DNA of 38,490 nucleotides, taken from positions 1 through 38,490 of the forward strand of contig JAGHAA010000024.1 in the NCBI GenBank assembly GCA_021161745.1, read 5' to 3'. This stretch comes from Candidatus Aenigmatarchaeota archaeon (lineage in GTDB: Archaea > Aenigmatarchaeota > Aenigmatarchaeia > CG10238-14 > JAGHAA01). The translations under genes were made by a program, and so were the position numbers. Numbering within the stretch: position 1 is the first letter of the stretch; every line of letters starts with the position of its first letter. This document shows, in pieces, positions 19,352 to 32,448 of the stretch. The notes beneath the pieces are model-generated. The model saw only the letters and a program-made list of their open reading frames with translations, was not told where the DNA came from and ran no database searches.

Positions 19352-19690
19352 ATGGTTGACGAAATAAGTATGGACGAGTTTGAGGAAGAGGTTGTTTACT
19401 CGGATTTACCAGTAATAATAGATTTTTGGGCAAAATGGTGTGGCCCTTGCCTGGCTTTTGCTCCTACTTTTGAAAAGTATGCAAAAAAGTATGAAGGAAA
19501 AGTAAAGTTTTTTCGTTGTAACATAGAAAAGAACAGGTCTTTGGCAGAGATGTTTGAAGTTAAATCAATCCCTACGATGCTTTTCTTTTGTGAAGGGAAA
19601 GTCGTGGAAAGAATAACTGGTGCTTATCCAGAAGATTCTTTTGGAGATAAAATAGAAGAGTTTTTCAAAAAGTGTGAGAATGCGGATTAA
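19352..19690 (+). CDS. trxA: thioredoxin
   Basis: The WCGPC active site is present in FWAKWCGPCLAF. The protein is 112 aa. Confidence 0.9.
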   Translation: MVDEISMDEFEEEVVYSDLPVIIDFWAKWCGPCLAFAPTFEKYAKKYEGKVKFFRCNIEKNRSLAEMFEVKSIPTMLFFCEGKVVERITGAYPEDSFGDKIEEFFKKCENAD

Positions 19691-20894
19691 GTTAAGTTTT
19701 CCTTTTTTGTTGAAAAGAAAACAAGATAGGAGTTTACCAGATAGAGTTAGGTTTGAAGAACTAAGTGATTTGCTGAAGAAGATTAAAGAAAGTAACGATG
19801 ATCTAAAGGAATGTTACGGTAGAGGGATGGAATTGTGTCAAAGGATAATGAAAGATATGGAAAAGATGAGAGAGCATGTTCTGTCTATGGAAAAAGAGGA
19901 GAAAGATTTTTCCAGAATGGTTTATAGATTGCTTGAAAAAGTACAACCCTGTAAAGGCGAGACGTTCCAAGAATTCATGAAATTTTATGACGATGTTTTT
20001 AAAACGCTTGAAACTATCGCGAAGGTTCCTAAAAACATTCAACTAAGAGTGATGGAGAAAAAGAGTGGGGTTACGTTTACGAAGCTCATGGAGAGGACGA
20101 CTAAAGATTTGAATAAACTTAAGAAATTTGTAAAAAGAAGGTTTACTGACGAGAGATGCTCGACGATAAACGATTACGAATTCTGTTGGAAGGTTTTTAA
20201 AGAAATTAAGATGATCGAAGAGCATATGGGAGAAAAAAGAATGGAGTTAAAAAAATTATCTGAAAGTTTGAATAGATTGGAGGAGGAACTAAAAAGGAAA
20301 GAAGAGTTGTTAGAAAAAATAGAAAGATTGTTTGAAGTCGAGAGACTGAATGAAGAGAAAAAAAGGATAGAGGAGAAGGTCAAAGCTTTGGAAGAAGGTA
20401 TAACAACTTCTGTTTTTTCAGCATCTCGTGTTGTAAAGAAATCAATTCATGGGATTAAAAGTCTGGAAAACGTTTGGAAGAAAATTGAAACGGATGTATG
20501 GAGTTTAAGTAAAGAAGAAATAAATGACATCGCAGATTATCTGAATAAATCTGTCTCAAAGCTAGGGGAGAAAGAGAAACAAAAGGTTTCTCACCTGTTA
20601 AAAATACTTAGAGAGTTTGATTCTTACGTTAGAAGAAGAAAGGAGTTGATGGGATCTTTAGAAAAGATAAATTCTGAATTAGAAAGTATTGAGACTAAAA
20701 AATTAACAAACATAAGAGATGTAAAACTCGAGATCGACGAATTGAAGAAAAAGATGAGAAACATCAGTTCTAAAGTTTCTCAGCTGGGGAGCGATATCAA
20801 CAAAATGGAAAGGAAGAAGAAAACGAAGTTAAAAGTCATTCAGAAAGCTTTAAAGAAGATTGTACTAAAAGAAATTTCGATCGTGGATGATTGA
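19674..20894 (+). CDS. long coiled-coil protein of unknown function
   Basis: 406 aa, K/E/L-rich with heptad-like stretches (e.g. LKKLSESLNRLEEELKRKEELLEKIERLFEVERLNEEKKRIEEKVKALEE). The start is GTG 19674 or ATG 19680. It overlaps the trx end and overlaps the udg start by 4 nt. Confidence 0.5.
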   Translation: MRMRIKLSFPFLLKRKQDRSLPDRVRFEELSDLLKKIKESNDDLKECYGRGMELCQRIMKDMEKMREHVLSMEKEEKDFSRMVYRLLEKVQPCKGETFQEFMKFYDDVFKTLETIAKVPKNIQLRVMEKKSGVTFTKLMERTTKDLNKLKKFVKRRFTDERCSTINDYEFCWKVFKEIKMIEEHMGEKRMELKKLSESLNRLEEELKRKEELLEKIERLFEVERLNEEKKRIEEKVKALEEGITTSVFSASRVVKKSIHGIKSLENVWKKIETDVWSLSKEEINDIADYLNKSVSKLGEKEKQKVSHLLKILREFDSYVRRRKELMGSLEKINSELESIETKKLTNIRDVKLEIDELKKKMRNISSKVSQLGSDINKMERKKKTKLKVIQKALKKIVLKEISIVDD

Positions 20895-21500: not shown

Positions 21501-22232
21501 ATGGAAGTATTAAAAATCCAAGACCTTCATGTCAAAGCAGACTCGAAAAAGATTTTAAAAGGCGTGAATCTATCTGTTAAGAAAGGAGAAGTCATCGCTC
21601 TTCTTGGACCGAACGCTAGTGGAAAAAGCACGCTGGCTTATACTATCATGGGTCTTCCAGAGTTCAAAGTGGAGAAGGGAAAAATTTTCTTCGAAGGGTT
21701 AGAGATAACACATCTTAAGACGTTTGAAAGGGCAAAGCTTGGGATTTCTTTGGCTTTTCAACACCCACCTCAAGTGAGAAACGTTAAATTGAAAGATTTA
21801 TTAAGAAGAATTCAAACACGAAGAATAGAGCTATCTCCTCTTGGGTTGGACGGCTTCAGTAGGCTGTTGGGAAGAGAAGTAAACGTCGGGTTTTCTGGTG
21901 GAGAGAGAAAGATTTCAGAGCTTCTACAACTGATAGCTATGAATCCAAAAGTTGTGATATTCGACGAAATAGATTCTGGACTAGACATTCAAAAGCTTAA
22001 ACTAGTGACTAAAATCATCAAAGAAAACTTTGTAGATGGTACATCTGTCATTCTCATCACACATCGTGGTAGCATTTTAAGATGGATCAAGCCTCACAGA
22101 GTTGCCATAATGATAGAGGGAAAGATTGTATGCGAGTCAGACGATTGGGAAAAAGTCTGGGGCACTATCGGGAGGTATGGGTATGAAAAGTGTAGAGAAT
22201 GCGAAGTATCTCCAAATAGATCATCGAGTTGA
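21501..22232 (+). CDS. sufC: Fe-S cluster assembly ATPase SufC
   Basis: Walker A is GPNASGKST. The signature is FSGGERKISELLQ. Walker B is VVIFDEIDSGLD. It has the usual SufC length. Confidence 0.85.
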   Translation: MEVLKIQDLHVKADSKKILKGVNLSVKKGEVIALLGPNASGKSTLAYTIMGLPEFKVEKGKIFFEGLEITHLKTFERAKLGISLAFQHPPQVRNVKLKDLLRRIQTRRIELSPLGLDGFSRLLGREVNVGFSGGERKISELLQLIAMNPKVVIFDEIDSGLDIQKLKLVTKIIKENFVDGTSVILITHRGSILRWIKPHRVAIMIEGKIVCESDDWEKVWGTIGRYGYEKCRECEVSPNRSSS

Positions 22233-23085
22233 AGAAATTTTGCGGAAGGAAGGAGTAGTGATTTTACCTAGCCAAAAAGCCTGGGAAAAGTTTGAATGGA
22301 GTAGAGAATACTTCGGAAAAAAACCGGATGAAGGATTTTTCGTATGGGTAACAAAGCAAATTCCGTTTCCAATTTCTACGTGTGTGACTATAAGTAGTGA
22401 AAACGTTGAGCAAAATATGATGAACCTTGTGGTGATCGAAGAAGGTATTAAAGTAAAATCTTACTCTATATGTAATGCCTCTTCTTTTGACCTTCATGGA
22501 AGGCATAACGCTCTTGGAAAAATAATTCTGAAGAAAGGTTCTAAAATGGAACTTCTTTCCACACAATCATGGGGATCTGAAGATGTTGTGGAGCCTACGT
22601 ACTACTTTATTCTGGAAGAAAACTCTATGCTAGATTACAAATTCAAAAGCTTGAACCCGCCTAAAAGGTTTGTTTCCAAAAACGTTTTTGAGCTGAAAGA
22701 AAATGCGAAGGTAAGGATAGAGGTGGCTGTGAAAGCTAACAACTCATACGTTGAACTTCATGAAACGACATACCTCAACGGAAAGAACGCGGATGCTGTT
22801 TCCAAATTACGCGTAGTCTCAGACAAAAAGAGTGAGATAATAGGCTACACCAAAATGGTTGCTAACGCTCCTTCTAAAGGACATCTGGACTGTCAAGGAT
22901 TGATGTTAAGGAACGATTCAAGGATAACTTTAATTCCTGCATTGGAAAACGCGAACAAAGAAGCTACGTTAACTCATGAAGCTTCGATAGGTAGAATAAC
23001 TGAAGATGTTTTGAACTACTTGATGACGAGAGGGTTAACTGAGGAGGAGGCAATAGACCTTATCGTTACAGGCTTTTTGAGTTAA
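22183..23085 (+). CDS. sufB: short SufB/SufD-family Fe-S scaffold protein
   Basis: It has a beta-helix-type repeat region and the C-terminal THEASIGRI..E.L.YL..RGL..EEA motif typical of SufB/D. The ORF track starts at 22126. ATG 22183 lies 6 nt after GGAGGT (22171-22176) and is the likely start, giving a ~50-nt overlap with sufC. Confidence 0.75.
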   Translation: MKSVENAKYLQIDHRVEEILRKEGVVILPSQKAWEKFEWSREYFGKKPDEGFFVWVTKQIPFPISTCVTISSENVEQNMMNLVVIEEGIKVKSYSICNASSFDLHGRHNALGKIILKKGSKMELLSTQSWGSEDVVEPTYYFILEENSMLDYKFKSLNPPKRFVSKNVFELKENAKVRIEVAVKANNSYVELHETTYLNGKNADAVSKLRVVSDKKSEIIGYTKMVANAPSKGHLDCQGLMLRNDSRITLIPALENANKEATLTHEASIGRITEDVLNYLMTRGLTEEEAIDLIVTGFLS

Positions 23086-23798
23086 TGTTCGCAAACTTCT
23101 AATTTTATCTTTTTTCTGAAGAATTCTTTTGTTGAAGAAAACAGTTTTATCCTACCTTTTTCCATCAGATAAACTCTTTTGGCCAACAGTTTAACGACAT
23201 CTATTTGGTTTGTGGAAAAAAGTATAGTTAAGTTTTTCTCTTTATTCAACTTTTTTAAGAATTCTATTATCTTCTTTTTAGATTGATGGTCTATCCCTGC
23301 AAAAGGTTCATCCATTATCAATAACTCAGGGTTATGTGCTAAAGCACCGGCGATAGCTACTTTCTTCTTCTCTCCACCGCTTAAGTAATGAGGAACCTTA
23401 TGTTTCAAGTGAGATATTTCAATCTCTTTTAGCAGGTGGTTTGCAACTTTAATCGCTTCCTTTTCACTCATCCCTATGTTGATGGGTGTAAAAACAATGT
23501 CGTCCATGACAGTAGGACCTATCAACTGGTATTCGACGTTTTGGAAAACTACTCCGATCTTTGGGATCAGTTTCTTCAAATCCTTCGATGGATCTAAACC
23601 GAAAACTTCTACTTTACCTTCTATAGGCTTAAGTAAACCTATTATATGGTTGAGTAAAGTCGTTTTACCAGAACCGTTTGGGCCTAAAAGAGCGAGTATG
23701 TCACCTCTTTTTACTACGAAGTCTAGACCACAAACCTGAACTTCTGTTTCATCTTCATACTTATGCTTTATACAATTTACTCTTACTAAAGTGTCCAT
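23082..23798 (-). CDS. cbiO: ECF/cobalt-type ABC transporter ATPase
   Basis: Walker A is GPNGSGKTT. The signature is LSGGEKKKVAIA. Walker B is LLIMDEPFAGID. Confidence 0.8.
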   Translation of the reverse strand: MDTLVRVNCIKHKYEDETEVQVCGLDFVVKRGDILALLGPNGSGKTTLLNHIIGLLKPIEGKVEVFGLDPSKDLKKLIPKIGVVFQNVEYQLIGPTVMDDIVFTPINIGMSEKEAIKVANHLLKEIEISHLKHKVPHYLSGGEKKKVAIAGALAHNPELLIMDEPFAGIDHQSKKKIIEFLKKLNKEKNLTILFSTNQIDVVKLLAKRVYLMEKGRIKLFSSTKEFFRKKIKLEVCEH

Positions 23799-24496
23799 CC
23801 TACCACTCCAGATAACGCCAAGATCCCAAGCCCTAGGAATATTATGGCTAAATCTTTCAAGCCAAAACTTTCTTTTTCTAAATGGTAGAATTTTCCTTTG
23901 AATCCTCTAATCATCAAAGAGTTGTAGAATTTCTCGCTAATCTCGATGGAATTAAGGAATACGTGGCCTATTAAGTTTGAGATGTTTTTTAGAGTCTGAA
24001 GTTTGTTGGCCGAATAAAGACCTCTGACCTTCAAAGACCTTATTCTGTTTTCTACGTCGTTCAATAGCACAAAAAAGAATCGATAAGTTAAGAAGAGAAC
24101 ATTTCCTAAAAATCCAGAGAATTTGCTCAGAAAATAAAAGATTTTTGTGTAAGGCGTTGTGGAGAATAAAAGTATTACCGACAAGAAAGATGAGAAACCT
24201 TTGAGAATGCTGAGAAGAGGCAACAGACTACTAGAGCTCAGTTGGCTTATCGCAAAGATGGAAGCAAAGAATGTTGGGTAAAGAGCCCATTTGAGAATTT
24301 TTGTGAGAGGCAGGTCAGAAATTTTTATCAACGCTAGTAGGATTGTTATCGTTAAACTAAGGAAGATTAAGGATTGAGTTAGCAGGATGGAAAAAAGAAC
24401 ACATAAGAAGAAAATTAGCTTAGAAAAAGTAGTAGCAGAATGATAAAACGTTTTCTTGCTTGTGGAAAAATAGTCTATTAAAAAAATTTCGCTCAT
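23786..24496 (-). CDS. cbiQ: ECF transporter transmembrane (T) component
   Basis: 236-aa polytopic protein between cbiM and cbiO. It contains the R-rich coupling-helix region (RIRSLKVRG) and has overlapping starts and stops with its neighbours. Confidence 0.7.
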   Translation of the reverse strand: MSEIFLIDYFSTSKKTFYHSATTFSKLIFFLCVLFSILLTQSLIFLSLTITILLALIKISDLPLTKILKWALYPTFFASIFAISQLSSSSLLPLLSILKGFSSFLSVILLFSTTPYTKIFYFLSKFSGFLGNVLFLTYRFFFVLLNDVENRIRSLKVRGLYSANKLQTLKNISNLIGHVFLNSIEISEKFYNSLMIRGFKGKFYHLEKESFGLKDLAIIFLGLGILALSGVVGWTL

Positions 24497-25137
24497 GGTA
24501 ACAAATTGGGTTTTGTTCTTCTTATGTATGAAACTATCATACCCGTTATGATAGATTCTATGAATGCTCCATACAAACCTATAGGTGTTACGATCGAGGC
24601 AAAAGTGATCACGGAGATTCTTTCTTTAGTTTGATGGACATGATGGTGTAAAAATTCTGCGGGATTAACGTTGGAGATTGCCACTATAGACACTACTAGG
24701 CCTATCGAAAGAGTTAGTGCGATAAAAGAGCTGATGGAGGAAATGACAAAGTAATTTTTCATTAGTTTTTTGAAAAAGGAAAAGAGAAAATAAGAGGCCA
24801 ATGCTTCTGACCAAACAACTATGGTGTTAAGTCCGACTATCGTTATGCCTCCATGGCCCATAGATGCTAGCAAAAGATTGACTACGAATGAAGATACTAG
24901 TGACCAGTATGGGCCTAGTAAGATACCTGATAACGTTGAAAGGTTTATATGAGTCGGTATGCCGAGCGGTATGGACATCGATATGAGCATGAGAGCCGAG
25001 ATCATCGAAACTTTTGGCAAAGATTTCCAATCGTTTTTAAGCTTGAAAGACAAAAGTAAAAGTAAACCTAATGAAATGCCGTATCCAGATAACCATAGCC
25101 AAACGGGCAGAACACCGTCTGGTATGTGAATGTGCAT
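24493..25137 (-). CDS. cbiM: CbiM/NikM-type metal (Co/Ni) uptake substrate component
   Basis: The N-terminus MHIHIPDGVLP resembles the conserved MHIxDG metal-binding N-terminus of CbiM/NikM. The protein is 214 aa and polytopic. Confidence 0.75.
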   Translation of the reverse strand: MHIHIPDGVLPVWLWLSGYGISLGLLLLLSFKLKNDWKSLPKVSMISALMLISMSIPLGIPTHINLSTLSGILLGPYWSLVSSFVVNLLLASMGHGGITIVGLNTIVVWSEALASYFLFSFFKKLMKNYFVISSISSFIALTLSIGLVVSIVAISNVNPAEFLHHHVHQTKERISVITFASIVTPIGLYGAFIESIITGMIVSYIRRTKPNLLP

Positions 25138-25149
25138 GCTATTAGTATT

Positions 25150-25164
25150 TATAACACGGTTATA
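25150..25164. promoter_or_regulatory. inverted repeat TATAAC-ACG-GTTATA in the cbiM/feoA divergent spacer
   Basis: Read directly. The 6-bp arms are perfect. It has the same ATAAC-N3-GTTAT core as the site upstream of trx. Confidence 0.45.
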
Positions 25165-25202
25165 TAAATTTTGATGTTTAAATAATAAAATCTATTTAAA
25201 GG

Positions 25203-25439
25203 ATGGTAGCAATGAAGATTGATTTATTGCGAGCTCCTTTGGGAAGAGATGTTATAGTCATAGATGTTGTAGGGGGAATCTGTTTAAAACAAAGGTTGTT
25301 CGCACTAGGCATAGTTCCTGGTAAGAAGATTAAAAAAGTGGTTCAACATCCGATGGGCGGTCCTATAATCGTGGAAATCAACGGTAGTAGATTCGCACTA
25401 GGAAGGGGCATGGCATCAAAAGTAATAGTAGAGGTATGA
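25203..25439 (+). CDS. feoA: FeoA-family small protein
   Basis: 78 aa with an SH3-like FeoA pattern (L..LG..PG..i.v....P.GGPi.v...g..faLgr..A..i.V). It overlaps feoB by 4 nt. Confidence 0.8.
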   Translation: MVAMKIDLLRAPLGRDVIVIDVVGGICLKQRLFALGIVPGKKIKKVVQHPMGGPIIVEINGSRFALGRGMASKVIVEV

Positions 25440-27151
25440 AAATGAGGAGAATACTCCTTCTTGGGAATCCTAACGTGGGTAAAAGTGTCATTTTTTCCCG
25501 TCTTACTGGGACAGACGTGATAGTATCCAACTATCCTGGGACAACTGTTGAGTATACGAAAGGGAGCATGAAGATAAACGGGAAAGAAGTAGAGGTTATA
25601 GATGTCCCAGGAACTTATTCATTAAAACCTTCTAACAAGGCTGAAGAAGTTGCAGTGAAAATGCTCGAAGAATTGGGAAAAGATGCTGTTGTTGTTAACG
25701 TGGTCGATTCTACCAATTTGGAAAGAAATCTGTACCTTACACTAGAATTGATGAAGAAAAAATTTCCAATGGTAGTTGCCTTAAACTTATGGGATGAAAC
25801 GAACAAGAAAGGCATACACATCGATTATAAAAAACTCGAAAAGATTTTAGGAGTGCCCGTTGTTGCTACAGTAGCTATAACGGGCGAAGGAATCAAAGAT
25901 CTTGTAGAAAAACTAAAACACGCTTCTCGTGGAAAGTTAAGATTCTCTGAAGACTGGACATGGGAAAAAATAGGAGAGATTGTTTCAGAGGTTCAAAGAA
26001 TAGAGCATAGACATCCTACGTGGAAAGAGATTTTAGAAACTGCTAGCGTAAAACCGATAACAGGGATACCTATAGCTATAATCGTTTTACTTCTATCGTT
26101 TTTCTTCGTGAGGATTATAGGAGAAGGTTTGATCGACTATGTTTTTGACCCTCTGTTTGAAGCGTATAAACCATTCGTTATAAGGCTTGATGGAATGATA
26201 AAGAATGAGTTTTTGAAAAAAATCCTTATGGGTGAGGTGTTCGATGGTGAGATAAGTTTTGAAGAGTCCTTAGGACTATTGACCACAGGCCTTTATGTTC
26301 CCTTCGCGATGGTTCTGCCTTATGTCGTGGCCTTTTATTTTGTTCTTGGAATATTGGAAGATACGGGATACTTGCCCAGACTCGCTGTTCTACTCGATAA
26401 TGTGTTTCATAAACTAGGACTTCATGGGTCTGCCATAGTTCCCACGTTGTTGGGGTTTGGTTGCAACGTTCCTGGAGCGTTGTCTACCAGGATACTAGAA
26501 ACTAGGAGGCAGAGGTTTATAGCACTTACACTCCTCTCTATTGCGATTCCATGTATAGCACAGAGTTCAATAATATTCGTGCTAGTTGGGAGGTATGGTG
26601 TGTGGGCGATAGCTAAGGTTTATTCGATACTCAGCATAGTCTGGTTGAGTGTTGGGTACTTGCTAAACAAATTGATGAAAGGAAGTAGTCCAGAACTCTT
26701 TTTAGAAATACCACCCTATAGGTTCCCATACATTCCAGGACTTCTAAAAAAATTGTGGATAAGAATTAGATGGTTTTTGGAAGATGCTATACCTTATGTG
26801 ATGTTAGGAGTACTCCTTGTCAACTTCCTTTATACTTTCAACGTGTTGTCAACCGTTTCTAGATTCTTTGAACCTCTTATATCTGGATGGTTAGGACTAC
26901 CTAAAGAAAGTGTTGTTGGTATTGTGATGGGGTTCTTGCGTAAGGACATTGCGATGAGTATGCTATTGCCAATAAACATGACAGAAAAACAGGCTATAAT
27001 AGCTAGCGTTATTCTTGCGATGTACTTTCCATGTATGGCAACGTTTGTCATAGTTTTTAAAGAATTGTGTGCAAGAGACTTGATTAAGATGGTTTTCATA
27101 ATGCTTTTGGTCTCGTTCTTAGTTGGAGGTTTTCTGAACAAAATACTGTAG
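25436..27151 (+). CDS. feoB: ferrous iron transporter FeoB
   Basis: The N-terminal G domain has GNPNVGKS, DVPGTYS and NLWD. A polytopic C-terminal permease follows. The protein is 571 aa. Confidence 0.9.
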   Translation: MKMRRILLLGNPNVGKSVIFSRLTGTDVIVSNYPGTTVEYTKGSMKINGKEVEVIDVPGTYSLKPSNKAEEVAVKMLEELGKDAVVVNVVDSTNLERNLYLTLELMKKKFPMVVALNLWDETNKKGIHIDYKKLEKILGVPVVATVAITGEGIKDLVEKLKHASRGKLRFSEDWTWEKIGEIVSEVQRIEHRHPTWKEILETASVKPITGIPIAIIVLLLSFFFVRIIGEGLIDYVFDPLFEAYKPFVIRLDGMIKNEFLKKILMGEVFDGEISFEESLGLLTTGLYVPFAMVLPYVVAFYFVLGILEDTGYLPRLAVLLDNVFHKLGLHGSAIVPTLLGFGCNVPGALSTRILETRRQRFIALTLLSIAIPCIAQSSIIFVLVGRYGVWAIAKVYSILSIVWLSVGYLLNKLMKGSSPELFLEIPPYRFPYIPGLLKKLWIRIRWFLEDAIPYVMLGVLLVNFLYTFNVLSTVSRFFEPLISGWLGLPKESVVGIVMGFLRKDIAMSMLLPINMTEKQAIIASVILAMYFPCMATFVIVFKELCARDLIKMVFIMLLVSFLVGGFLNKIL

Positions 27152-27159
27152 GTGGTAGT

Positions 27160-27456
27160 ATGGTAACGAAAGAAGAGGTAATGAAGGCTTTATCGACAGT
27201 CAAAGACGTGGAAACTGGTTTTGACATAGTAGAAATGGGTTTGATAACTGGAGTAGAAATAAAAGGAGATTATGTGAAGGTTAAAATGACACTTACGACA
27301 CCACTCTGCCCTTATGCAGGTTACCTTTTTGAAGAAACAGAAAAGGCTGTTAAAAAGCTTAAAGGCGTAAAAAAGGTCGAGGTTGAGTACGATTGGGAAC
27401 ATCCATGGACACCGGAGATGGCGTCAGAAAGAATAAGGAAAATGCTTGGAATTTAA
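27160..27456 (+). CDS. DUF59/MIP18-family Fe-S assembly-associated protein (SufT-like)
   Basis: 98 aa. The V.DPE-like segment (VKDVETGFDIVEMGLI) and the conserved TLTTPLCP motif are present. Confidence 0.75.
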   Translation: MVTKEEVMKALSTVKDVETGFDIVEMGLITGVEIKGDYVKVKMTLTTPLCPYAGYLFEETEKAVKKLKGVKKVEVEYDWEHPWTPEMASERIRKMLGI

Positions 27457-27779
27457 ACTCTTTTTATTTCACCCTTTGGCTGAATTATCAAAGGTCTGGA
27501 CTCAGTTAAAGCTTGTGCTATCTTTTTTCTTGCAGACTCTGCTAAGCGCCAAACAGTTGCGCGTGATGTGTTCATTTTGTTGGCAGCTTCTTCTTGTGTC
27601 AAACCTTCTAAATCAAGCAAACGTAGCACTTCGTACTCCGCATAACTGAGCTCTATCGGTTGTGGATTAAGCATAGGTTGGGGTACGAATTCTTTAACGT
27701 TTGGCAAAGAATAGAGAAATAGCCAACTTGGAGGCCTACCCCTTCCAAACTTTCTACATCCCCAACGCCAACGAGGCAT
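27453..27779 (-). CDS. DUF134 (UPF0251) family predicted DNA-binding protein
   Basis: The MPR-basic N-terminus is followed by EYEVLRLLDLEGLTQEEAANKMNTSRATVWRLAESARKKIAQAL, a sigma-70 region-4-like HTH typical of DUF134. The gene is divergent from the operon at 27867. Confidence 0.75.
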   Translation of the reverse strand: MPRWRWGCRKFGRGRPPSWLFLYSLPNVKEFVPQPMLNPQPIELSYAEYEVLRLLDLEGLTQEEAANKMNTSRATVWRLAESARKKIAQALTESRPLIIQPKGEIKRV

Positions 27780-27788
27780 ACTACCAAT

Positions 27789-27810
27789 TATGTGTTATTG
27801 CACAAAATTT
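27789..27810. promoter_or_regulatory. 22-nt operator-like repeat R1, TATGTGTTATTGCACAAAATTT
   Basis: It matches R2 at 20 of 22 positions. It contains the TGTG-N6-CACA dyad. It lies 10-31 nt upstream of the DUF134 ATG. Confidence 0.6.
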
Positions 27811-27832
27811 AAATAGTTTTGATTCTTAGATT

Positions 27833-27854
27833 TATGTGATAATGCACAAAATTT
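27833..27854. promoter_or_regulatory. 22-nt operator-like repeat R2, TATGTGATAATGCACAAAATTT
   Basis: It is a direct repeat of R1, 44 bp downstream (start to start). It abuts the GGAGGT Shine-Dalgarno site of the 27867 ORF. Confidence 0.6.
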
Positions 27855-27866
27855 GGAGGTGATATT

Positions 27867-28217
27867 ATGCCTTGGTGGGGAGGTCGGGGAGGAAGAGGAT
27901 TTAGATGGATGTTCTGGTTAACGGGTATGCCAGGATGGGCAAGATGGGGCTATGGTTATGGTTACTCTGGAGTATATCCATGGTTCTGGAGATGTAGATG
28001 GTTTCCATGGCTTCCCAGAGGTTGGTGGACAGGAATATATGGACCAGTAACCTGGACGCCACAAGGCCCTGTTTTAACGCAGCAAATTCAACAGCCTATA
28101 ACACAACCAACAGTTCAAAACGAGATAGAGTACTTAAAAGAACAAAAGAGAATGTTGGAAGAGGAACTTAAAGCGATAGAAAAAAGAATAAAAGAATTGG
28201 AGGCGATGTTAAAATGA
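27867..28217 (+). CDS. DUF5320-like protein with an extremely Trp/Arg/Gly/Tyr-rich N-terminal half and a C-terminal coiled coil
   Basis: A GGAGGTGA Shine-Dalgarno site lies 7 nt upstream. There are 13 Trp in the first 63 residues. The C-terminal EIEYLKEQKRMLEEELKAIEKRIKELEAMLK resembles the DUF5320 coiled-coil tail. The stop overlaps the next ATG (ATGA). Confidence 0.65.
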   Translation: MPWWGGRGGRGFRWMFWLTGMPGWARWGYGYGYSGVYPWFWRCRWFPWLPRGWWTGIYGPVTWTPQGPVLTQQIQQPITQPTVQNEIEYLKEQKRMLEEELKAIEKRIKELEAMLK

Positions 28218-28759
28218 AGATTCTTGTTGCTACCCAAGGACCTGGTGGATTGGATGATGTGGTCTCTGCGGTGTTTGGTAGAGCACCAAGCTTTACGATA
28301 GTTGAAGTGGAAGGTAAACAAATAAAAAACGTTGAAACGCTTACTAATCCTGCTGCAAACGCTTTTGGTGGAGCAGGCATCCAAGCTGCTCAGCTTGCAG
28401 TGGAGAAAGGAGTTAATGTAGTAATTACTGGTAACATGGGACCAAACGCTTCGATGGTACTACAGCAATCGGGGATTCAGATAGTTACTGACTTCGTTGG
28501 AATGAAAGTTAAAGATGCTATAGATGCTTTTTTGCAGAAGGGGTTTAGCTCATCACAACAGTTATCGACTACACAACCTATGCCTGTTCCAACAGTTCCA
28601 TACCAAGTGGGTGAGAAATCTAAGTTAGATTTAGAGTTTGAGAAGCGAATGCTTGAGTTGCAGAAGCAAATGATAGAAGAACAGATAAAGTACATCGAGA
28701 AGAAGATAAAAGAGTTGGAAGGTAAAAAGAATGAGAATCGTTATACCTCTCGAGAGTAA
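28214..28759 (+). CDS. NifX/NafY-like (Nitro_FeMo-Co family) domain protein with a C-terminal linker plus coiled-coil extension
   Basis: MKILVATQG...VSAVFGRAPSFTIVEVE...NPAANAFGGAGIQAAQLAVEKGVNVVITGNMGPNA is the canonical family pattern. Residues 111-181 are an added Q/P/T linker plus heptad segment. Confidence 0.8.
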   Translation: MKILVATQGPGGLDDVVSAVFGRAPSFTIVEVEGKQIKNVETLTNPAANAFGGAGIQAAQLAVEKGVNVVITGNMGPNASMVLQQSGIQIVTDFVGMKVKDAIDAFLQKGFSSSQQLSTTQPMPVPTVPYQVGEKSKLDLEFEKRMLELQKQMIEEQIKYIEKKIKELEGKKNENRYTSRE

Positions 28760-29069
28760 TGAGGGAGAGAATTCAAAAGTTTCATGGCACTTTGGTAGGG
28801 CCTCATACTTTGCAATATTCGACACAGTAAACAAAAAGTTGGAGATAATAGAAAATAGGAGTGAACATTTTGGTGGTGTAGGAAAGCCAGCAGAAATTAT
28901 AGCGAAAATTCAGCCAGATATGGTGTTTGCAAAAGGTATGGGACCTAAAGCTATACAGCTGTTGACATCGAGAGGTATTAAGGTGGTGACAGGTAACTAT
29001 TCTATTTTAAAAGAGATAATACAAAACATCGATAAACTAGTGGAATTGAATGAGAGTTGTAAAGAATAA
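28731..29069 (+). CDS. NifX/NafY-like (Nitro_FeMo-Co family) domain protein
   Basis: MRIVIPLES...VSWHFGRASYFAIFD...FAKGMGPKAIQLL..RGIKV fits the family pattern. It overlaps the preceding gene by 29 nt. Confidence 0.75.
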   Translation: MRIVIPLESNEGENSKVSWHFGRASYFAIFDTVNKKLEIIENRSEHFGGVGKPAEIIAKIQPDMVFAKGMGPKAIQLLTSRGIKVVTGNYSILKEIIQNIDKLVELNESCKE

Positions 29070-29865
29070 AGTAATAGTTCTTCCAATCCTTTGCATCTTT
29101 TTACTATCAGTTATTTTAATAATGAATAAAGGTGAGTTTGAAATGGTTAATATGGCTAAGAATCTTACGATTGTAGTGGTTTATGACAATACAGCCTACC
29201 TACCCAACTTAAAAGCGGATCATGGTTTTTCCTGTGTTGTTAGAATTGATGGCAAAAAGATCCTCTTTGATACAGGAACTGATGAAAATGTGCTGCTGAA
29301 TAACTTGGAAAAATTGGGCATTCGACCAGAATCAATCTCTACCATTATTCTTTCGCACGAGCATACCGACCATGTTGGTGGGCTCGAGGGTTTTTTAAAA
29401 AAGAATGGGAACGTTACGGTATACTTGCTGGCCTCATTTCCAACCGAATTTAAACAAATGATTAAAAGCTTTGGTGCAAACGTTGTAGAAGTTTCTGAAC
29501 CGAGGAGAATAGACGAATCCGTTTATTCTACAGGCAAATTAGGAATCTTTATACAAGAGCAGGCATTAGTTATCAACACACCGAAGGGTTTGGTTGTAAT
29601 AACTGGATGTGCACATCCTGGAATTGCCAATATAGTTAGGTTTGTTGAACAAAAGTTTGGGAAAGTTTATTTGGTTGTTGGTGGTTTTCATCTGATGTGG
29701 TCTTCTGAAGACGAAATAGGTAAAGTGTTAAGAGAGTTGAAAGAATTAGGCGTGGAAAAAGTTATGCCATGCCATTGTACAGGCAAGTTAGCATCTGAAA
29801 TGTTTAGGAAAACTTTCAAAGAAAATTTTGAAGAATGTGGTGTTGGAAGAATCTTAAAAATATAG
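29050..29865 (+). CDS. metallo-beta-lactamase-fold protein (COG1237-like)
   Basis: HGFSCVV...ILFDTG and the SHEHTDHVGG zinc motif (HxHxDH) are present, with C-terminal GGFHL...PCHCTG. The ATG 29050 form adds a hydrophobic N-terminal segment. An alternative ATG at 29143 follows a GGTGA Shine-Dalgarno site. Confidence 0.7.
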   Translation: MRVVKNKVIVLPILCIFLLSVILIMNKGEFEMVNMAKNLTIVVVYDNTAYLPNLKADHGFSCVVRIDGKKILFDTGTDENVLLNNLEKLGIRPESISTIILSHEHTDHVGGLEGFLKKNGNVTVYLLASFPTEFKQMIKSFGANVVEVSEPRRIDESVYSTGKLGIFIQEQALVINTPKGLVVITGCAHPGIANIVRFVEQKFGKVYLVVGGFHLMWSSEDEIGKVLRELKELGVEKVMPCHCTGKLASEMFRKTFKENFEECGVGRILKI

Positions 29866-29877
29866 GAGGTTGATAGG

Positions 29878-30129
29878 ATGAAAGGGTTTGGCAGTGGTTT
29901 TGGAAGAGGTGGTATAGGTAGGGGTCGAAGAGGAATGGGAAAAGGACGAGGACAGGGTAGAGGTCGAGGGATGGGACGTGGTCGAGGAAGAATGGGTGGA
30001 TTTGGCTTAGGACCTGGTGGTGAGTGTGTTTGTCCAAACTGTGGTTACAGAGTCCCTCATGAACCTGGAATACCTTGCTTTAACATAAAATGCCCAAAAT
30101 GTGGGACACCTATGACAAGGATGAGGTAA
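29878..30129 (+). CDS. small protein with an Arg-Gly repeat N-terminus and a Cys-rich zinc ribbon
   Basis: A GGAGGT Shine-Dalgarno site lies 8 nt upstream. The N-terminus is MKGFGSGFGRGGIGRGRRGMGKGRGQGRGRGMGRGRGRMGGFG. It is followed by ECVCPNCGYRV...PCFNIKCPKCGTPM, which carries six Cys. Confidence 0.65.
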   Translation: MKGFGSGFGRGGIGRGRRGMGKGRGQGRGRGMGRGRGRMGGFGLGPGGECVCPNCGYRVPHEPGIPCFNIKCPKCGTPMTRMR

Positions 30130-30156: not shown

Positions 30157-31002
30157 GTGAATATGCGAATTTATGTGAGCTCTGGAACGAAAGGAGGTGT
30201 GGGCAAGTCAACGTTCGCGGTTTTACTTTCTTTGAAATTGTCTAAAAGTTCAAAGGTTTTGCTTTTCGATGCTGATGTTGAATGTCCTAACGACTATTTG
30301 CTTCTTAGTCAGAAGCTTAAAGAGTCTGTCGGGTTTACGTATCAAGAATTTCCAGAAATAGATGAACAGAAATGTAAAAAATGTGGTGTTTGTGCTAAAG
30401 TTTGTAGAGAGCATGCCATTTTTTGGGTTCCTGGCAAGTATCCGATAATACTCAACGATCTATGCTCTGGTTGTGGTGCATGCAAAATAGCTTGTCCATT
30501 TAATGCCATAAGGATGAACAGAAAAGTTTCTGGCGAGATTTTTGTCAACCAGATTAACCCAAACCTTTGGCTTGTAACTGGTTTATCAAAACCTGGAATA
30601 ACGGAGACAGGTCCTGTAGTTAAACAAGCAAAGGATTTTGTATTGAAGTTTGCGGAAGAAAGAGGGATAGATTATTTAATTGTCGACACAGCTCCTGGTA
30701 CACATTGTAACGTTATACAGGCCTTACTTAATGCAGAAAAGGTCTATGCTGTTACAGAACCTACACCGTTGGGTGCTCATGATTTAAGCATAATGTTGGA
30801 ACTAACGAAAAGAATTGGGATAAAAAGTGAAATAGTTTTGAACAAGTCAAATATTGGCAACAGAAAATTGATAGAAAAAGTTTCTAAAGAGTATAACGTC
30901 CCGATAAGCGTTGAGATTCCTTATAGCGAGGAACTGGTAAAAGCTTATAGTACTGGTAAGCTTGTGGAGTTTACTGATAAACTTAAATTGGTGGTTGAAT
31001 GA
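30157..31002 (+). CDS. MinD/ParA-superfamily P-loop ATPase with an inserted 2x[4Fe-4S] ferredoxin domain (COG1149-like)
   Basis: The deviant Walker A is GTKGGVGKST. The cluster motifs are CKKCGVCAKVC and CSGCGACKIACP. Walker B is LIVDTAPG. The start is GTG 30157 or ATG 30163. Confidence 0.8.
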   Translation: MNMRIYVSSGTKGGVGKSTFAVLLSLKLSKSSKVLLFDADVECPNDYLLLSQKLKESVGFTYQEFPEIDEQKCKKCGVCAKVCREHAIFWVPGKYPIILNDLCSGCGACKIACPFNAIRMNRKVSGEIFVNQINPNLWLVTGLSKPGITETGPVVKQAKDFVLKFAEERGIDYLIVDTAPGTHCNVIQALLNAEKVYAVTEPTPLGAHDLSIMLELTKRIGIKSEIVLNKSNIGNRKLIEKVSKEYNVPISVEIPYSEELVKAYSTGKLVEFTDKLKLVVE

Positions 31003-31853
31003 AAATAGTAGTTGCAAGCGGTAAAGGAGGCGTTGGTAAAAGTATGCTTGCAAGCTCTTTAGTAGTTTTACTGAGTAAGGAAAGGGAGATCGTTGCTTGT
31101 GATTGCGATGTTGACGCACCAAACCTTGGTCTGTGGTTAGGTGTAACGAATTATGATGAAGTTAAAAGAATTTCAACATCTGAAAAAGCTTTTATAATCG
31201 ATGCTGATGCTTGTAAAGGAAAGCTTAAGCCGAGTGATTGTAAGTTTGGAGCAATCGAAATAAAAGAAGGTAAACTTTGGATAAATCCGTTTCTATGTGA
31301 GGGTTGTGGAGTTTGTAAGTTGTTATGCAAAGATGGAGTAGAGTTAAAGCCTGTGGAGAATGGAGAAATAAGAATAACCAAGACGAAGTATGGGTTTACA
31401 CTCGTTTCAGCACAACTTTATCCAGGTGAGAAAGGTTCTGGTAAGGTAGTTGAAGAGTTGAGAAGGCATGCTGAAAAGTTTGGTGGTTTCATTCTGATGG
31501 ATGCTGCGGCTGGCATAGGTTGTCCAGTCATAGCGTCTTTGCGTGGTGTTGATTATGCTATCATGGTTACTGAACCAACGCTCTCTGGGCTCTCAGATTT
31601 GAAAAGGGTGATGAGCATAGCAAACCATTTTAAGGTTCCTTACAGCGTTGTTATAAACAAGTATGACATAAACGAAGGGATGAGTAAGAAGATTGAGGAA
31701 GAGTTTGGAGATAAGATTCTTGGAAAGATTAGTTATGATAAAAGCGTTATAGATGCGATAGTAAACCTTAAACCTGTTGTTGAAACCGAAAGCAAGGTCG
31801 TTGAGGAAATAAAACAGATTTTTGAAAGGTTGAAAGAAGAAATCAAAATTTAG
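30999..31853 (+). CDS. MinD/ParA-superfamily P-loop ATPase with an inserted, partly degenerate ferredoxin domain
   Basis: Walker A is SGKGGVGKS. Only one complete cluster motif remains (CEGCGVCKLLC). The first motif is reduced to C-x9-C. Walker B is ILMDAAAG. It overlaps the preceding gene with ATGA. Confidence 0.8.
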   Translation: MKIVVASGKGGVGKSMLASSLVVLLSKEREIVACDCDVDAPNLGLWLGVTNYDEVKRISTSEKAFIIDADACKGKLKPSDCKFGAIEIKEGKLWINPFLCEGCGVCKLLCKDGVELKPVENGEIRITKTKYGFTLVSAQLYPGEKGSGKVVEELRRHAEKFGGFILMDAAAGIGCPVIASLRGVDYAIMVTEPTLSGLSDLKRVMSIANHFKVPYSVVINKYDINEGMSKKIEEEFGDKILGKISYDKSVIDAIVNLKPVVETESKVVEEIKQIFERLKEEIKI

Positions 31854-31881: not shown

Positions 31882-32448
31882 CTACATCATCACTATACTC
31901 AAGAAGAAGTCCTGTAAAAAGTAAGCCAACAAGATGTTGTAAACAGCATTCGTTATGTATGCGAATATGTACATGTAGTCTTGCCTTATGAATATATCCA
32001 TCGTTGCTAACAACAAACCTTTCACGATCATGCATACAGCAACTATGATAACGAAAGGGATCTGATTTGCCCAAAGTATGCTTGCTAAAGCACTTATTAT
32101 ACCATAAACGACATTATCAGGCGTCGGTAAGAAAGGAGGATATTTCATCTGCATAGGTGGAGTTAATTGCCATGAGACTATGCTCAAGAAACCTGTCAAT
32201 ACGGGCATTACTAAAAAACCAAAGATAAAACCACCAATAGGTCCTTCTATCATGCCTACGAGTATCATAGGGATAAAAATGAGGTCTATTCCTATGTACG
32301 AGTTTATCTTGATGAAGGAAGTAAAGATGACTTTGTCTATCCAGATCATCACATAGATTATTCCATAGCCTAAACCACCAAGCTTTGAAAAAATCCAAAA
32401 GCCTGCTATCAAGCTTATGAGAGCTTCTATAAGCCAGCGTGTATTCAT
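31882..32448 (-). CDS. polytopic membrane protein of unknown function (about 6 TM, ECF S-component-like size)
   Basis: 188 aa and hydrophobic throughout. Copy 2 of the GTTATACGTATAAC palindrome lies 53 nt upstream of its ATG. Confidence 0.5.
   Translation of the reverse strand: MNTRWLIEALISLIAGFWIFSKLGGLGYGIIYVMIWIDKVIFTSFIKINSYIGIDLIFIPMILVGMIEGPIGGFIFGFLVMPVLTGFLSIVSWQLTPPMQMKYPPFLPTPDNVVYGIISALASILWANQIPFVIIVAVCMIVKGLLLATMDIFIRQDYMYIFAYITNAVYNILLAYFLQDFFLSIVMM

Follow-up and report, generated by a model that had tools for sequence, protein, structure and literature searches.

What does a protein do whose N-terminal half is one-fifth tryptophan and whose gene opens an operon of NifX-like proteins and MinD-type ATPases? 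The question is raised by a 38,490-nucleotide (nt) stretch of DNA (hereafter the window) from a Candidatus Aenigmatarchaeota archaeon (contig JAGHAA010000024.1), which encodes such a protein of 116 amino acids (aa), here termed the W-rich protein (Table 1). Judged from its sequence and relatives, it is a real, conserved member of DUF5320, a catalogued but functionally uncharacterised family. Three features are new: (i) the Trp-rich head consists of two fixed motifs, joined or separate according to lineage, (ii) the Pfam DUF5320 model covers the coiled coil alone, and (iii) this coiled coil, together with other cationic arms, is common to NifX-like carriers. The explanation favoured here, offered tentatively, is that the W-rich protein is a coiled-coil adaptor which tethers a cationic Arg/Trp arm to a NifX-like metallocluster carrier, with the arm handling the cluster.

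The W-rich gene and its product

Tryptophan occupies residues 3, 4, 14, 17, 24, 27, 39, 41, 45, 48, 53, 54 and 63 of the W-rich protein, i.e., 13 of the first 63 positions (20.6%), compared to 1.1% across the longer open reading frames (ORFs) of the window (binomial P ~2e-13). Among window ORFs of at least 80 aa, it has the highest Trp content and no other comes close. Of the 64 N-terminal positions, 49 are G, W, R, P, Y or F. The initial annotation had described both this composition and the Trp content of the head, and both hold on recount. The G+C content of the window is 37.7%. The composition is not a product of chance, since 49 homologues and relatives in 193 species-representative genomes keep both the ORF and the Trp pattern. 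An artefactual or non-coding ORF is rejected; the frame is conserved across phyla, and the ORFs on the opposite strand are just 48-53 aa long.

Because the gene upstream is divergent, the W-rich gene opens a run of seven closely spaced genes on the same strand. The Shine-Dalgarno (SD)-like 8-mer that precedes its start codon, GGAGGTGA, is also the commonest 8-mer shared by the upstream regions of related loci (29 of 74), and its stop codon (TGA, 28215-28217) overlaps the start of the next ORF (ATG, 28214) as ATGA. The earlier proposal that the gene is very likely translated is supported, as related loci in different phyla retain the ORF, the ribosome-binding site and the coupling to the following gene. 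Tryptic peptides of the protein include WMFWLTGMPGWAR and WFPWLPR.

Family membership and predicted structure

The W-rich protein matches Pfam DUF5320 (PF17253) at 34.5 bits (gathering cutoff 27; E = 4.8e-8), with protein residues 29-111 aligned to profile positions 35-99. Taken by itself, the C-terminal segment of 46 residues still reaches 29.6 bits. Residues 1-73 give no match to any Pfam family, and neither do the heads of other DUF5320 members. Thus, the Pfam model describes the coiled coil and not the Trp-rich head. A 52%-identical homologue of the same fused type (P0018) is labelled 'DUF5320 domain-containing protein' by NCBI, and Pfam lists DUF5320 as a 'family of unknown function'. The W-rich protein is, therefore, not categorically new, as its family is known and annotated in databases. 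NCBIfam holds no family model for it, and a literature search on DUF5320 returned incidental mentions in two papers, with no function.

A PDB sequence search with the family profile returned generic coiled coils only (designed coils, haemagglutinin HA2 and prefoldin). AlphaFold2 (AF2), run with 35 and with 120 sequences, gave mean confidence scores (predicted local distance difference test, pLDDT) of 57.8 and 61.5, respectively; a helix at residues 83-115 (pLDDT 72-87) is the sole reliable part of the model.

Two fixed motifs in the Trp-rich head

Of the 49 homologues returned by a database search, most come from DPANN-type archaea; single sequences carry the labels Thermococcus and Hecatellales. 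The nearest relatives are from metagenome-assembled genomes of DPANN-type archaea, and no database record matches the window protein exactly. Conservation was read from an alignment (A1) of the window protein and 34 homologues, with identity measured against the window residue. Two gene segments that the initial annotation had grouped as low-complexity sequence prove to be where residue positions are best conserved in the protein. Motif A (RWMFWLTGxPGWxR) has a mean identity of 71% over residues 13-27, and motif B (consensus CRWFPWLPRxWWTGxYGP) is gap-free with a mean identity of 83%, compared to 47% for the coiled coil. Thirteen columns of A1 are invariant (C43, F46, P47, W48, P50, R51, W53, W54, G56, G59, T64, G67 and P68). 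The Trp positions are conserved accordingly in the homologues: W48, W53 and W54 are kept in 100% of A1, W24 and W63 in 94%, and 10 of the 13 Trp in at least 62% of sequences. Orthologous loci retain an intact ORF as well as the aromatic pattern.

Pure low complexity is rejected for the core motifs. Within the head it is confined to the G/Y-rich spacer (residues 28-39), and the signature of stickers and spacers, in which composition is kept and positions are not, is seen just in this spacer and in the Q/P/T-rich linker (residues 70-84). The conserved Trp-rich core indicates a specific fold or binding interface, and the positional conservation of motifs A and B argues for this over a generic aromatic sticker.

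Fusion and splitting of motifs A and B

Relatives were found in 193 genomes in a scan of one genome per species. In archaea they occur in DPANN, Bathyarchaeia, Hadarchaeota, Thermoplasmata, Methanocellales/Methanosarcinales and Asgard, and in bacteria they occur in the anaerobic phyla WOR-3, Omnitrophota, Calescamantes, Thermotogae, Clostridia, Planctomycetia and Acetothermia. Of 80 related loci retrieved, 76 could be classified by head type. The type A head (RxRxMYYLTGLPGWxRFG[FY]SPGW) is about 5% Trp and is Cys-free in 40 of 43 proteins. The type B head (C-R-W-F-P-W-L-P-R-x-W-W-T-G-x-Y-G-P) is 9-17% Trp, and a single Cys is found in 57 of the 63 B-containing proteins. Motif B is nearly unchanged in type B proteins of 75-105 aa, and FRWMFWLTGMPGWARWG (residues 12-28 of the window protein) fits the type A motif RxRxMYYLTGLPGWxRFG; the regular expression [LAMIVF]TG[LMIVT]P[GRE]W recovers the fused type as well as 43 type A proteins.

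The two heads are arranged in several ways among the 76 loci: (i) a fusion of A and B with one coiled coil, the form found in the window (20 loci), (ii) A and B on separate adjacent genes, each with a coiled coil (17 loci), (iii) A and B on separate adjacent genes, with B lacking the coiled coil (13 loci), (iv) A alone in the retrieved stretch (13 loci), (v) B alone in the retrieved stretch (12 loci), and (vi) an unclassified head with B (1 locus). Where A and B are adjacent separate genes, A precedes B in 21 of 30 loci. As A and B are fused in some loci and split in others, they are taken to act together (the Rosetta-stone argument). The two differ in abundance: a type A profile search gave at least 2941 clusters at 90% identity, and the Trp-rich head (residues 1-69, HMMER) matches 17 representatives among 1.84 billion at E ≤ 0.001. 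Compared to Pfam DUF5320 members, the W-rich protein is alike in small size, C-terminal coiled coil, motif A head and a neighbourhood of NifX-like, MinD-Fer4 and DUF134 genes; common DUF5320 proteins (type A) are Cys-free, whereas the W-rich protein adds the rare motif B and carries A and B on a single chain.

Small proteins of a third class carry a Tyr/Trp/Pro-rich head that differs from both A and B, on the same DUF5320-type coiled coil; their genes sit between the A, B and NifX-like genes (Table 1).

A coiled coil common to W-rich and NifX-like proteins

The initial annotation had read a Q/P/T linker followed by a heptad coiled coil, and these are found at residues 70-84 and 85-116. Heptad positions a and d are filled by I87, L90, L97, L101, I104, I108, L111 and L115. 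The segment fits the family consensus EQEIxxLExQxxxLExxLxxIxKRIxELxK, in which E98, R107, L111 and others are nearly invariant in A1. A hidden Markov model (HMM) of the coil, built from the last 40 residues of family proteins, matches 94 W-rich-family ORFs, 38 NifX-like ORFs and 15 other small aromatic-rich ORFs of these clusters.

The NifX-like protein encoded immediately downstream (28214-28759) ends in a coil of this kind. Its residues 132-168 match DUF5320 (E = 0.007), its tail matches the family coiled-coil HMM (E = 4.5e-7), and 14 of 21 residues are identical between the two coils (E = 8e-8). A NifX-like gene lies within 400 nt downstream of the W-rich-family gene in 59 of 76 loci, and in the window subgroup all six coiled-coil NifX-like genes that directly follow a W-rich gene overlap it as ATGA (window, L001, L003, L005, L009 and L014). 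Of the coiled-coil link to the NifX-like partner that had been proposed earlier, the homologous coil is thus present, on the partner and on 38 NifX-like proteins; that the W-rich and coupled NifX-like proteins pair heteromerically through these coils is what we infer from it.

Cationic tails on NifX-like domains

The tails of 128 NifX-like ORFs were surveyed, with per-locus counts based on 72 loci. The tails include: (i) the coiled coil (38 ORFs), (ii) an RG-rich tail (14 ORFs), (iii) an RG-rich tail with a six-Cys zinc ribbon, which is a separate gene in the window (4 ORFs), and (iv) fusion to a CDF metal transporter (Cation_efflux, ZT_dimer and Nitro_FeMo-Co domains; 9 ORFs), while 63 ORFs have no tail. 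Five of the nine CDF-NifX fusions end in an Arg/Trp tail (…GPWWRR), of which …RRWGRWRRRGPWWRRIWG is an example. At least one NifX-like protein of the coiled-coil, RG, RG-Zn-ribbon or CDF-fused form is found in 58 of 72 loci. A cationic arm tethered to NifX-like domains is thus a general theme of these clusters.

The separate RG-Zn-ribbon protein of the window has the six-Cys motif C-x-C-P-x-C-G … P-C-x5-C-P-x-C-G and gives weak zinc-ribbon matches only in Pfam. Homologues occur in 23 loci, and in L002, L013, L019 and L021 the module is fused to the NifX-like C-terminus, downstream of the W-rich gene.

A proposed adaptor for a NifX-like carrier

The W-rich protein would be a small adaptor subunit of an anaerobe-type, ORP-like metallocluster-handling cluster. 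The coils of the W-rich and coupled NifX-like proteins would most likely zip together, possibly with further copies, and this pairing would hold the Trp-rich, single-Cys head, with its charge of +7, beside the NifX-like carrier domain. The head may be a tethered arm that folds only within the complex. There it would take up, shield or pass on the anionic metal-sulfur cluster that the NifX-like domain carries, by means of Arg/Trp contacts and with the invariant Cys as a transient ligand. That the protein is an adaptor in this complex is probable; the specific role of its head as a cluster-handling arm is possible but doubtful. This role is nonetheless preferred for the head because NifX-like domains are joined to such arms by several different routes, because even membrane-fused NifX domains keep an Arg/Trp tail, because the Cys hardly varies, and because the surrounding genes are Fe-S- or metal-related.

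Several observations weigh against this proposal. A single Cys per chain is insufficient to bind a cluster alone, and a type B variant in L077 has no Cys. The NifX-like partner (28214-28759) has neither Cys nor His, and it was considered that the head Cys might compensate for this; at least one Cys is, however, present in 35 of the 38 coiled-coil NifX-like proteins elsewhere, most with one or two, which weakens the idea. Heterospecificity is not enforced by charge, since the two coils have similar patterns at their e/g positions. Pairing of the coils is also not universal, since the downstream NifX-like protein of 10 fused-type loci has an RG tail and no coiled coil. AF2 gives no confident fold for the head (pLDDT 42-64). 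In the Desulfovibrio ORP system, the purified complex is without Orp7 (DVU2107), the first product of the orp7-orp8-orp9 operon (PMC6345978).

Alternative explanations

An unlikely alternative is that the head sits in the lipid interface and that the coil thereby holds the NifX-like carrier near the FeoB, CDF and CbiMQO transporters. The Wimley-White interfacial free energy of the head (residues 1-64) is -26.1 kcal/mol, below that of all 9633 other 64-residue segments encoded in the stretch, transmembrane proteins included (minimum -18.9), and the head has a net charge of +7 with the first acidic residue not before position 86. FeoAB genes border the cluster of the window, as they do in about 10 loci, and CDF transporters are fused to NifX in nine loci. 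Tritrpticin (VRRFPWWWPFLRR) and indolicidin (ILPWKWPWWPWRR) are Trp/Arg/Pro-rich, membrane-active peptides of animal host defence, secreted and processed, and such peptides are interfacial binders of similar sequence. The likeness lies in the R-x-FPW…PR-WWW character, in the cationic, Pro-punctuated Trp clusters and in a highly favourable energy of interfacial partitioning, and no homology is implied. The W-rich protein differs from them in being cytoplasmic-looking, 116 aa long and equipped with an invariant Cys, a coiled coil and a place in a metallocluster operon; by inspection, a hydrophobic signal core was not found in its N-terminus (MPWWGGRGGRGFR). Generic anchors, moreover, tolerate substitution. 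The fixed Pro, Gly, Thr, Cys and Arg positions of the head, which do not vary between archaea and bacteria, suggest instead that it has a specific fold or partner. The NifX domain of the CDF fusions is already tethered to the membrane yet carries an Arg/Trp tail, the soluble, DNA-binding DUF134 regulator has a similar Arg/Trp N-terminus, and the W-rich protein itself has no amphipathic helix or transmembrane segment.

The initial annotation had suggested a cation-pi sticker. In its multivalent form, aromatic heads and RG tails would build a condensate, or a looser network, in which the assembly machinery is concentrated. Complementary segments are indeed abundant (Trp/Tyr/Phe-rich heads, the RG-tailed NifX-like ORFs, the RG-Zn-ribbon protein and the Arg/Trp tails of CDF-NifX fusions), the spacer varies in length with only its composition conserved, and AF2 finds no stable monomer fold. 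Such a hub is improbable, however, as motifs A and B are conserved by position, more so than the coiled coil, and include invariant residues that are not stickers.

Still less probable is a partner of the MinD-type ATPases, similar to MinE, ParB or McdB, that would recruit or stimulate the Orp3/4-like ATPases and link them to NifX-like cargo. Partners of ParA/MinD ATPases are typically small, fast-evolving, coiled-coil proteins with basic N-terminal peptides. The W-rich protein is likewise small, with a basic, RG-rich N-terminal region and a coiled coil, and two MinD/CooC-type ATPases are conserved in the same operon, as MinE and McdB share operons with MinD-family ATPases and presumed cargo. 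Yet no sequence similarity to MinE/McdB was found, and the head has fixed motifs rather than being a disordered basic peptide. The gene that lies close by, and often overlaps, is the NifX-like one, to which the W-rich gene is coupled; the ATPases lie 2 kb downstream in the window.

It is highly improbable that the RGG- and aromatic-rich head binds RNA or DNA (e.g., G-rich structures) or modulates the DUF134 regulator: the head is cationic (+7) and rich in RG and aromatic residues, the DUF134 N-terminus is like it in composition, a DUF134 HTH gene and a conserved operator-like motif adjoin it in the common intergenic region, and a DUF5320 and a DUF134 protein of Methanosarcina mazei were flagged with an RG-rich quadruplex-binding-like motif in a purely computational motif search (PMC7565180), but this hint is a weak motif match, no recognised nucleic-acid-binding domain was found in the W-rich protein by Pfam, and the gene is co-transcribed and coupled with those of metallocluster proteins and shares its coil with the NifX-like carrier.

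Operon, neighbourhood and candidate operator

The operon runs in the order W-rich, two NifX-like, metallo-beta-lactamase (MBL)-fold, RG-Zn-ribbon and two MinD-Fer4 genes (Table 1). The MinD-type ATPase pair and the DUF134 gene are conserved in most loci. A metal/Fe-S supercluster with Suf, Cbi, Feo and DUF59 genes lies directly 5' of the operon (21501-27456). No tRNA genes are found in the window.

Table 1. Coordinates of features at the W-rich locus; positions refer to the window, except where a related locus (L003 and so on) is named.
Feature	Position	Strand	Evidence or remark
406-aa ORF	19674-20894	+	no Pfam match at E ≤ 1e-5
SufC	21501-22232		
SufB/D	22126-23085		
CbiO/CbiQ/CbiM	23082-25137	-	
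FeoA	25203-25439		
FeoB	25436-27151		
DUF59/FeS_assembly_P protein	27160-27456		
DUF134 gene, 108 aa, divergent	27453-27779	-	sigma-70 region-4-like helix-turn-helix (HTH); PF02001 E = 5.8e-21; adjoins W-rich gene in most loci
Operator-like repeat 1, TGTGTTATTGCACAAAATTT	27791-27810	+	overlaps TATA-like TTTAAATA
Archaeal TATA-like TTTAAATA	27808-27815		between divergent DUF134 and W-rich genes
Operator-like repeat 2, TGTGATAATGCACAAAATTT	27835-27854	+	18/20 identical to repeat 1; directly 5' of SD
SD-like GGAGGTGA	27855-27862	+	sequence; 4 nt 5' of W-rich ATG
W-rich gene, 116 aa, DUF5320 family, fused A+B type	27867-28217	+	ORF, translation, Pfam, homologues, alignment
Head motif A, residues 10-27, RGFRWMFWLTGMPGWARW	27894-27947	+	matches head of common type A DUF5320 proteins
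Variable G/Y-rich spacer between motifs, residues 28-39	27948-27983	+	31% identity, 24% gaps; length varies
Head motif B, residues 40-69, FWRCRWFPWLPRGWWTGIYGPVTWTPQGPV	27984-28073	+	83% mean identity, gap-free (A1)
Q/P/T-rich flexible linker, residues 70-84	28074-28118	+	25% identity; length varies; AF2 pLDDT <50 at residues 76-81
C-terminal coiled coil, residues 85-116	28119-28214	+	segment recognised by Pfam DUF5320; heptad pattern
NifX-like (Nitro_FeMo-Co) protein with Q/P/T linker and C-terminal DUF5320-type coiled coil (~nt 28616-28729)	28214-28759	+	PF02579 E = 1.5e-24
Second NifX-like protein, tail-free	28731-29069	+	PF02579 E = 9.7e-19
MBL-fold protein	29050-29865	+	PF00753; recurs in many loci
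RG-rich small protein, six-Cys zinc-ribbon-like C-terminus	29878-30129	+	translation; weak zinc-ribbon matches
MinD/CooC-type P-loop ATPase with inserted 4Fe-4S ferredoxin motifs, Orp3/Orp4-like	30157-31002	+	CbiA/ParA + Fer4
Second MinD/CooC-type P-loop ATPase, Orp3/Orp4-like	30999-31853	+	CbiA/ParA + weak Fer4_10
188-aa hydrophobic ORF, directly after operon	31882-32448	-	no Pfam match at E ≤ 1e-5
CDF-NifX fusions, related loci	L003:7071-8381, L005:2935-4245, L013:2717-4039, L014:3582-4838, L015:1023-2378, L017:7068-8399, L019:6646-7998, L022:6434-7651, L046:10261-11496		
Third-class small-protein ORFs, related loci	L046:6306-6497, L076:6490-6666, L072:1074-1289, L058:5872-6099, L064:5869-6099, L070:5740-5979, L075:675-935		

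The DUF134 protein is likely the regulator of the W-rich operon, and the repeats between the two genes are probably its operator. Both 20-nt direct repeats read TGTG(T/A)TA(T/A)TGCACAAAATTT. A TGCACA/TGTGCA core is found in 30 of 72 homologous upstream regions, compared to 6.2% of background windows (P ~7e-18), often as the near-palindrome GTGCA-WW-TGCAC; the repeats also occur upstream in L002, L004, L007, L008, L013, L017, L019, L024, L055, L056, L080 and others.

The N-terminus of the window DUF134 protein, MPRWRWGCRKFGRGR, is Arg/Trp-rich and head-like in composition. In DUF134 proteins of these clusters, N-termini such as MPRWRWGCRR and MPRWCWRWRR lie outside the Pfam domain and contain Cys (e.g., L001, L003, L007, L009, L017, L019 and L021), and 24 of 43 have at least one Trp and at least three Arg within the first 16 residues. 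Nothing functional was found in the literature on DUF134, COG1433 or COG1149; the Nanoarchaeum proteome lists a NifX-family protein and nothing on the DUF5320 family.

Comparison with the ORP system

In Desulfovibrio, the orange proteins (ORP) have been connected with the delivery of Fe-S and possibly also with cell division. In its overall parts, the window cluster resembles the ORP cluster of Desulfovibrio vulgaris Hildenborough (orp5-4-3 / orp7-8-9). The likenesses include: (i) Orp3 and Orp4, a MinD-like ATPase pair with 4Fe-4S motifs that the window pair resembles at the domain level only, (ii) the NifX-family Orp8, which the two Nitro_FeMo-Co proteins of the window (28214 and 28731) resemble in sequence domains, (iii) a small first gene followed by a NifX-like gene, and (iv) a distribution of the W-rich relatives that is restricted to anaerobes, as for ORP. 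The Desulfovibrio proteins bind and transfer Fe-S and form a complex of Orp3, 4, 5, 8 and 9, to which MrpORP delivers Fe-S clusters, and Orp8 homologues hold a metal-sulfide cluster non-covalently (PMC6345978).

By contrast, the ORP system has MrpORP (Orp9; Mrp/NBP35 and Di-Nase), and no Mrp-Di-Nase fusion occurs in the window operon, where the NCBIfam MrpORP model reaches only 47.6 and 37.3 bits (cutoff 450) with the two NifX-like proteins, through the Di-Nase part alone. The ORP operons depend on sigma-54 and on the enhancer-binding protein OrpR, whose gene lies between the divergent operons, whereas the window has a 108-aa DUF134 HTH protein that is not an AAA+ enhancer-binding protein, and its promoter has an archaeal TATA-like box and TGCACA repeats. 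The window cluster also has extra MBL and RG-Zn-ribbon genes. It is, therefore, termed ORP-like and not ORP, since MrpORP and sigma-54/OrpR control are absent. No Desulfovibrio-labelled match is among the best 120 type A profile matches, and no functional description of Orp7/DVU2107 was found in the literature.

Implications

DUF5320 proteins and ORP-like clusters are widespread in strict anaerobes, including DPANN, Bathyarchaeia, Asgard, relatives of methanogens and several bacterial candidate phyla. The analysis turns a compositional oddity into a concrete, testable architecture, with Cys43 and Trp48/53/54 as its candidate key residues. A bolder proposal, decidedly unlikely as a whole, has three parts: (i) the invariant CRWFPWLPRWWWTG motif and motif A would form an undescribed Trp/Arg 'ladder' mini-domain, folded only on its partner, that cages an anionic metal-sulfur cluster or docks it to the membrane, (ii) Arg/Trp or RG arms, attached to NifX-like carriers through fusion or through a common coiled-coil zipper, would be the organising principle of a widespread anaerobic machine for metallocluster trafficking, and (iii) DUF134 would sense the same ligand through its Arg/Trp/Cys N-terminus. 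If the head is no such module, the W-rich protein would be an unusual-looking but ordinary member of a known DUF family. If it is a Trp/Arg module that cages clusters or docks at the membrane, it would represent a new structural solution in metallocofactor trafficking.

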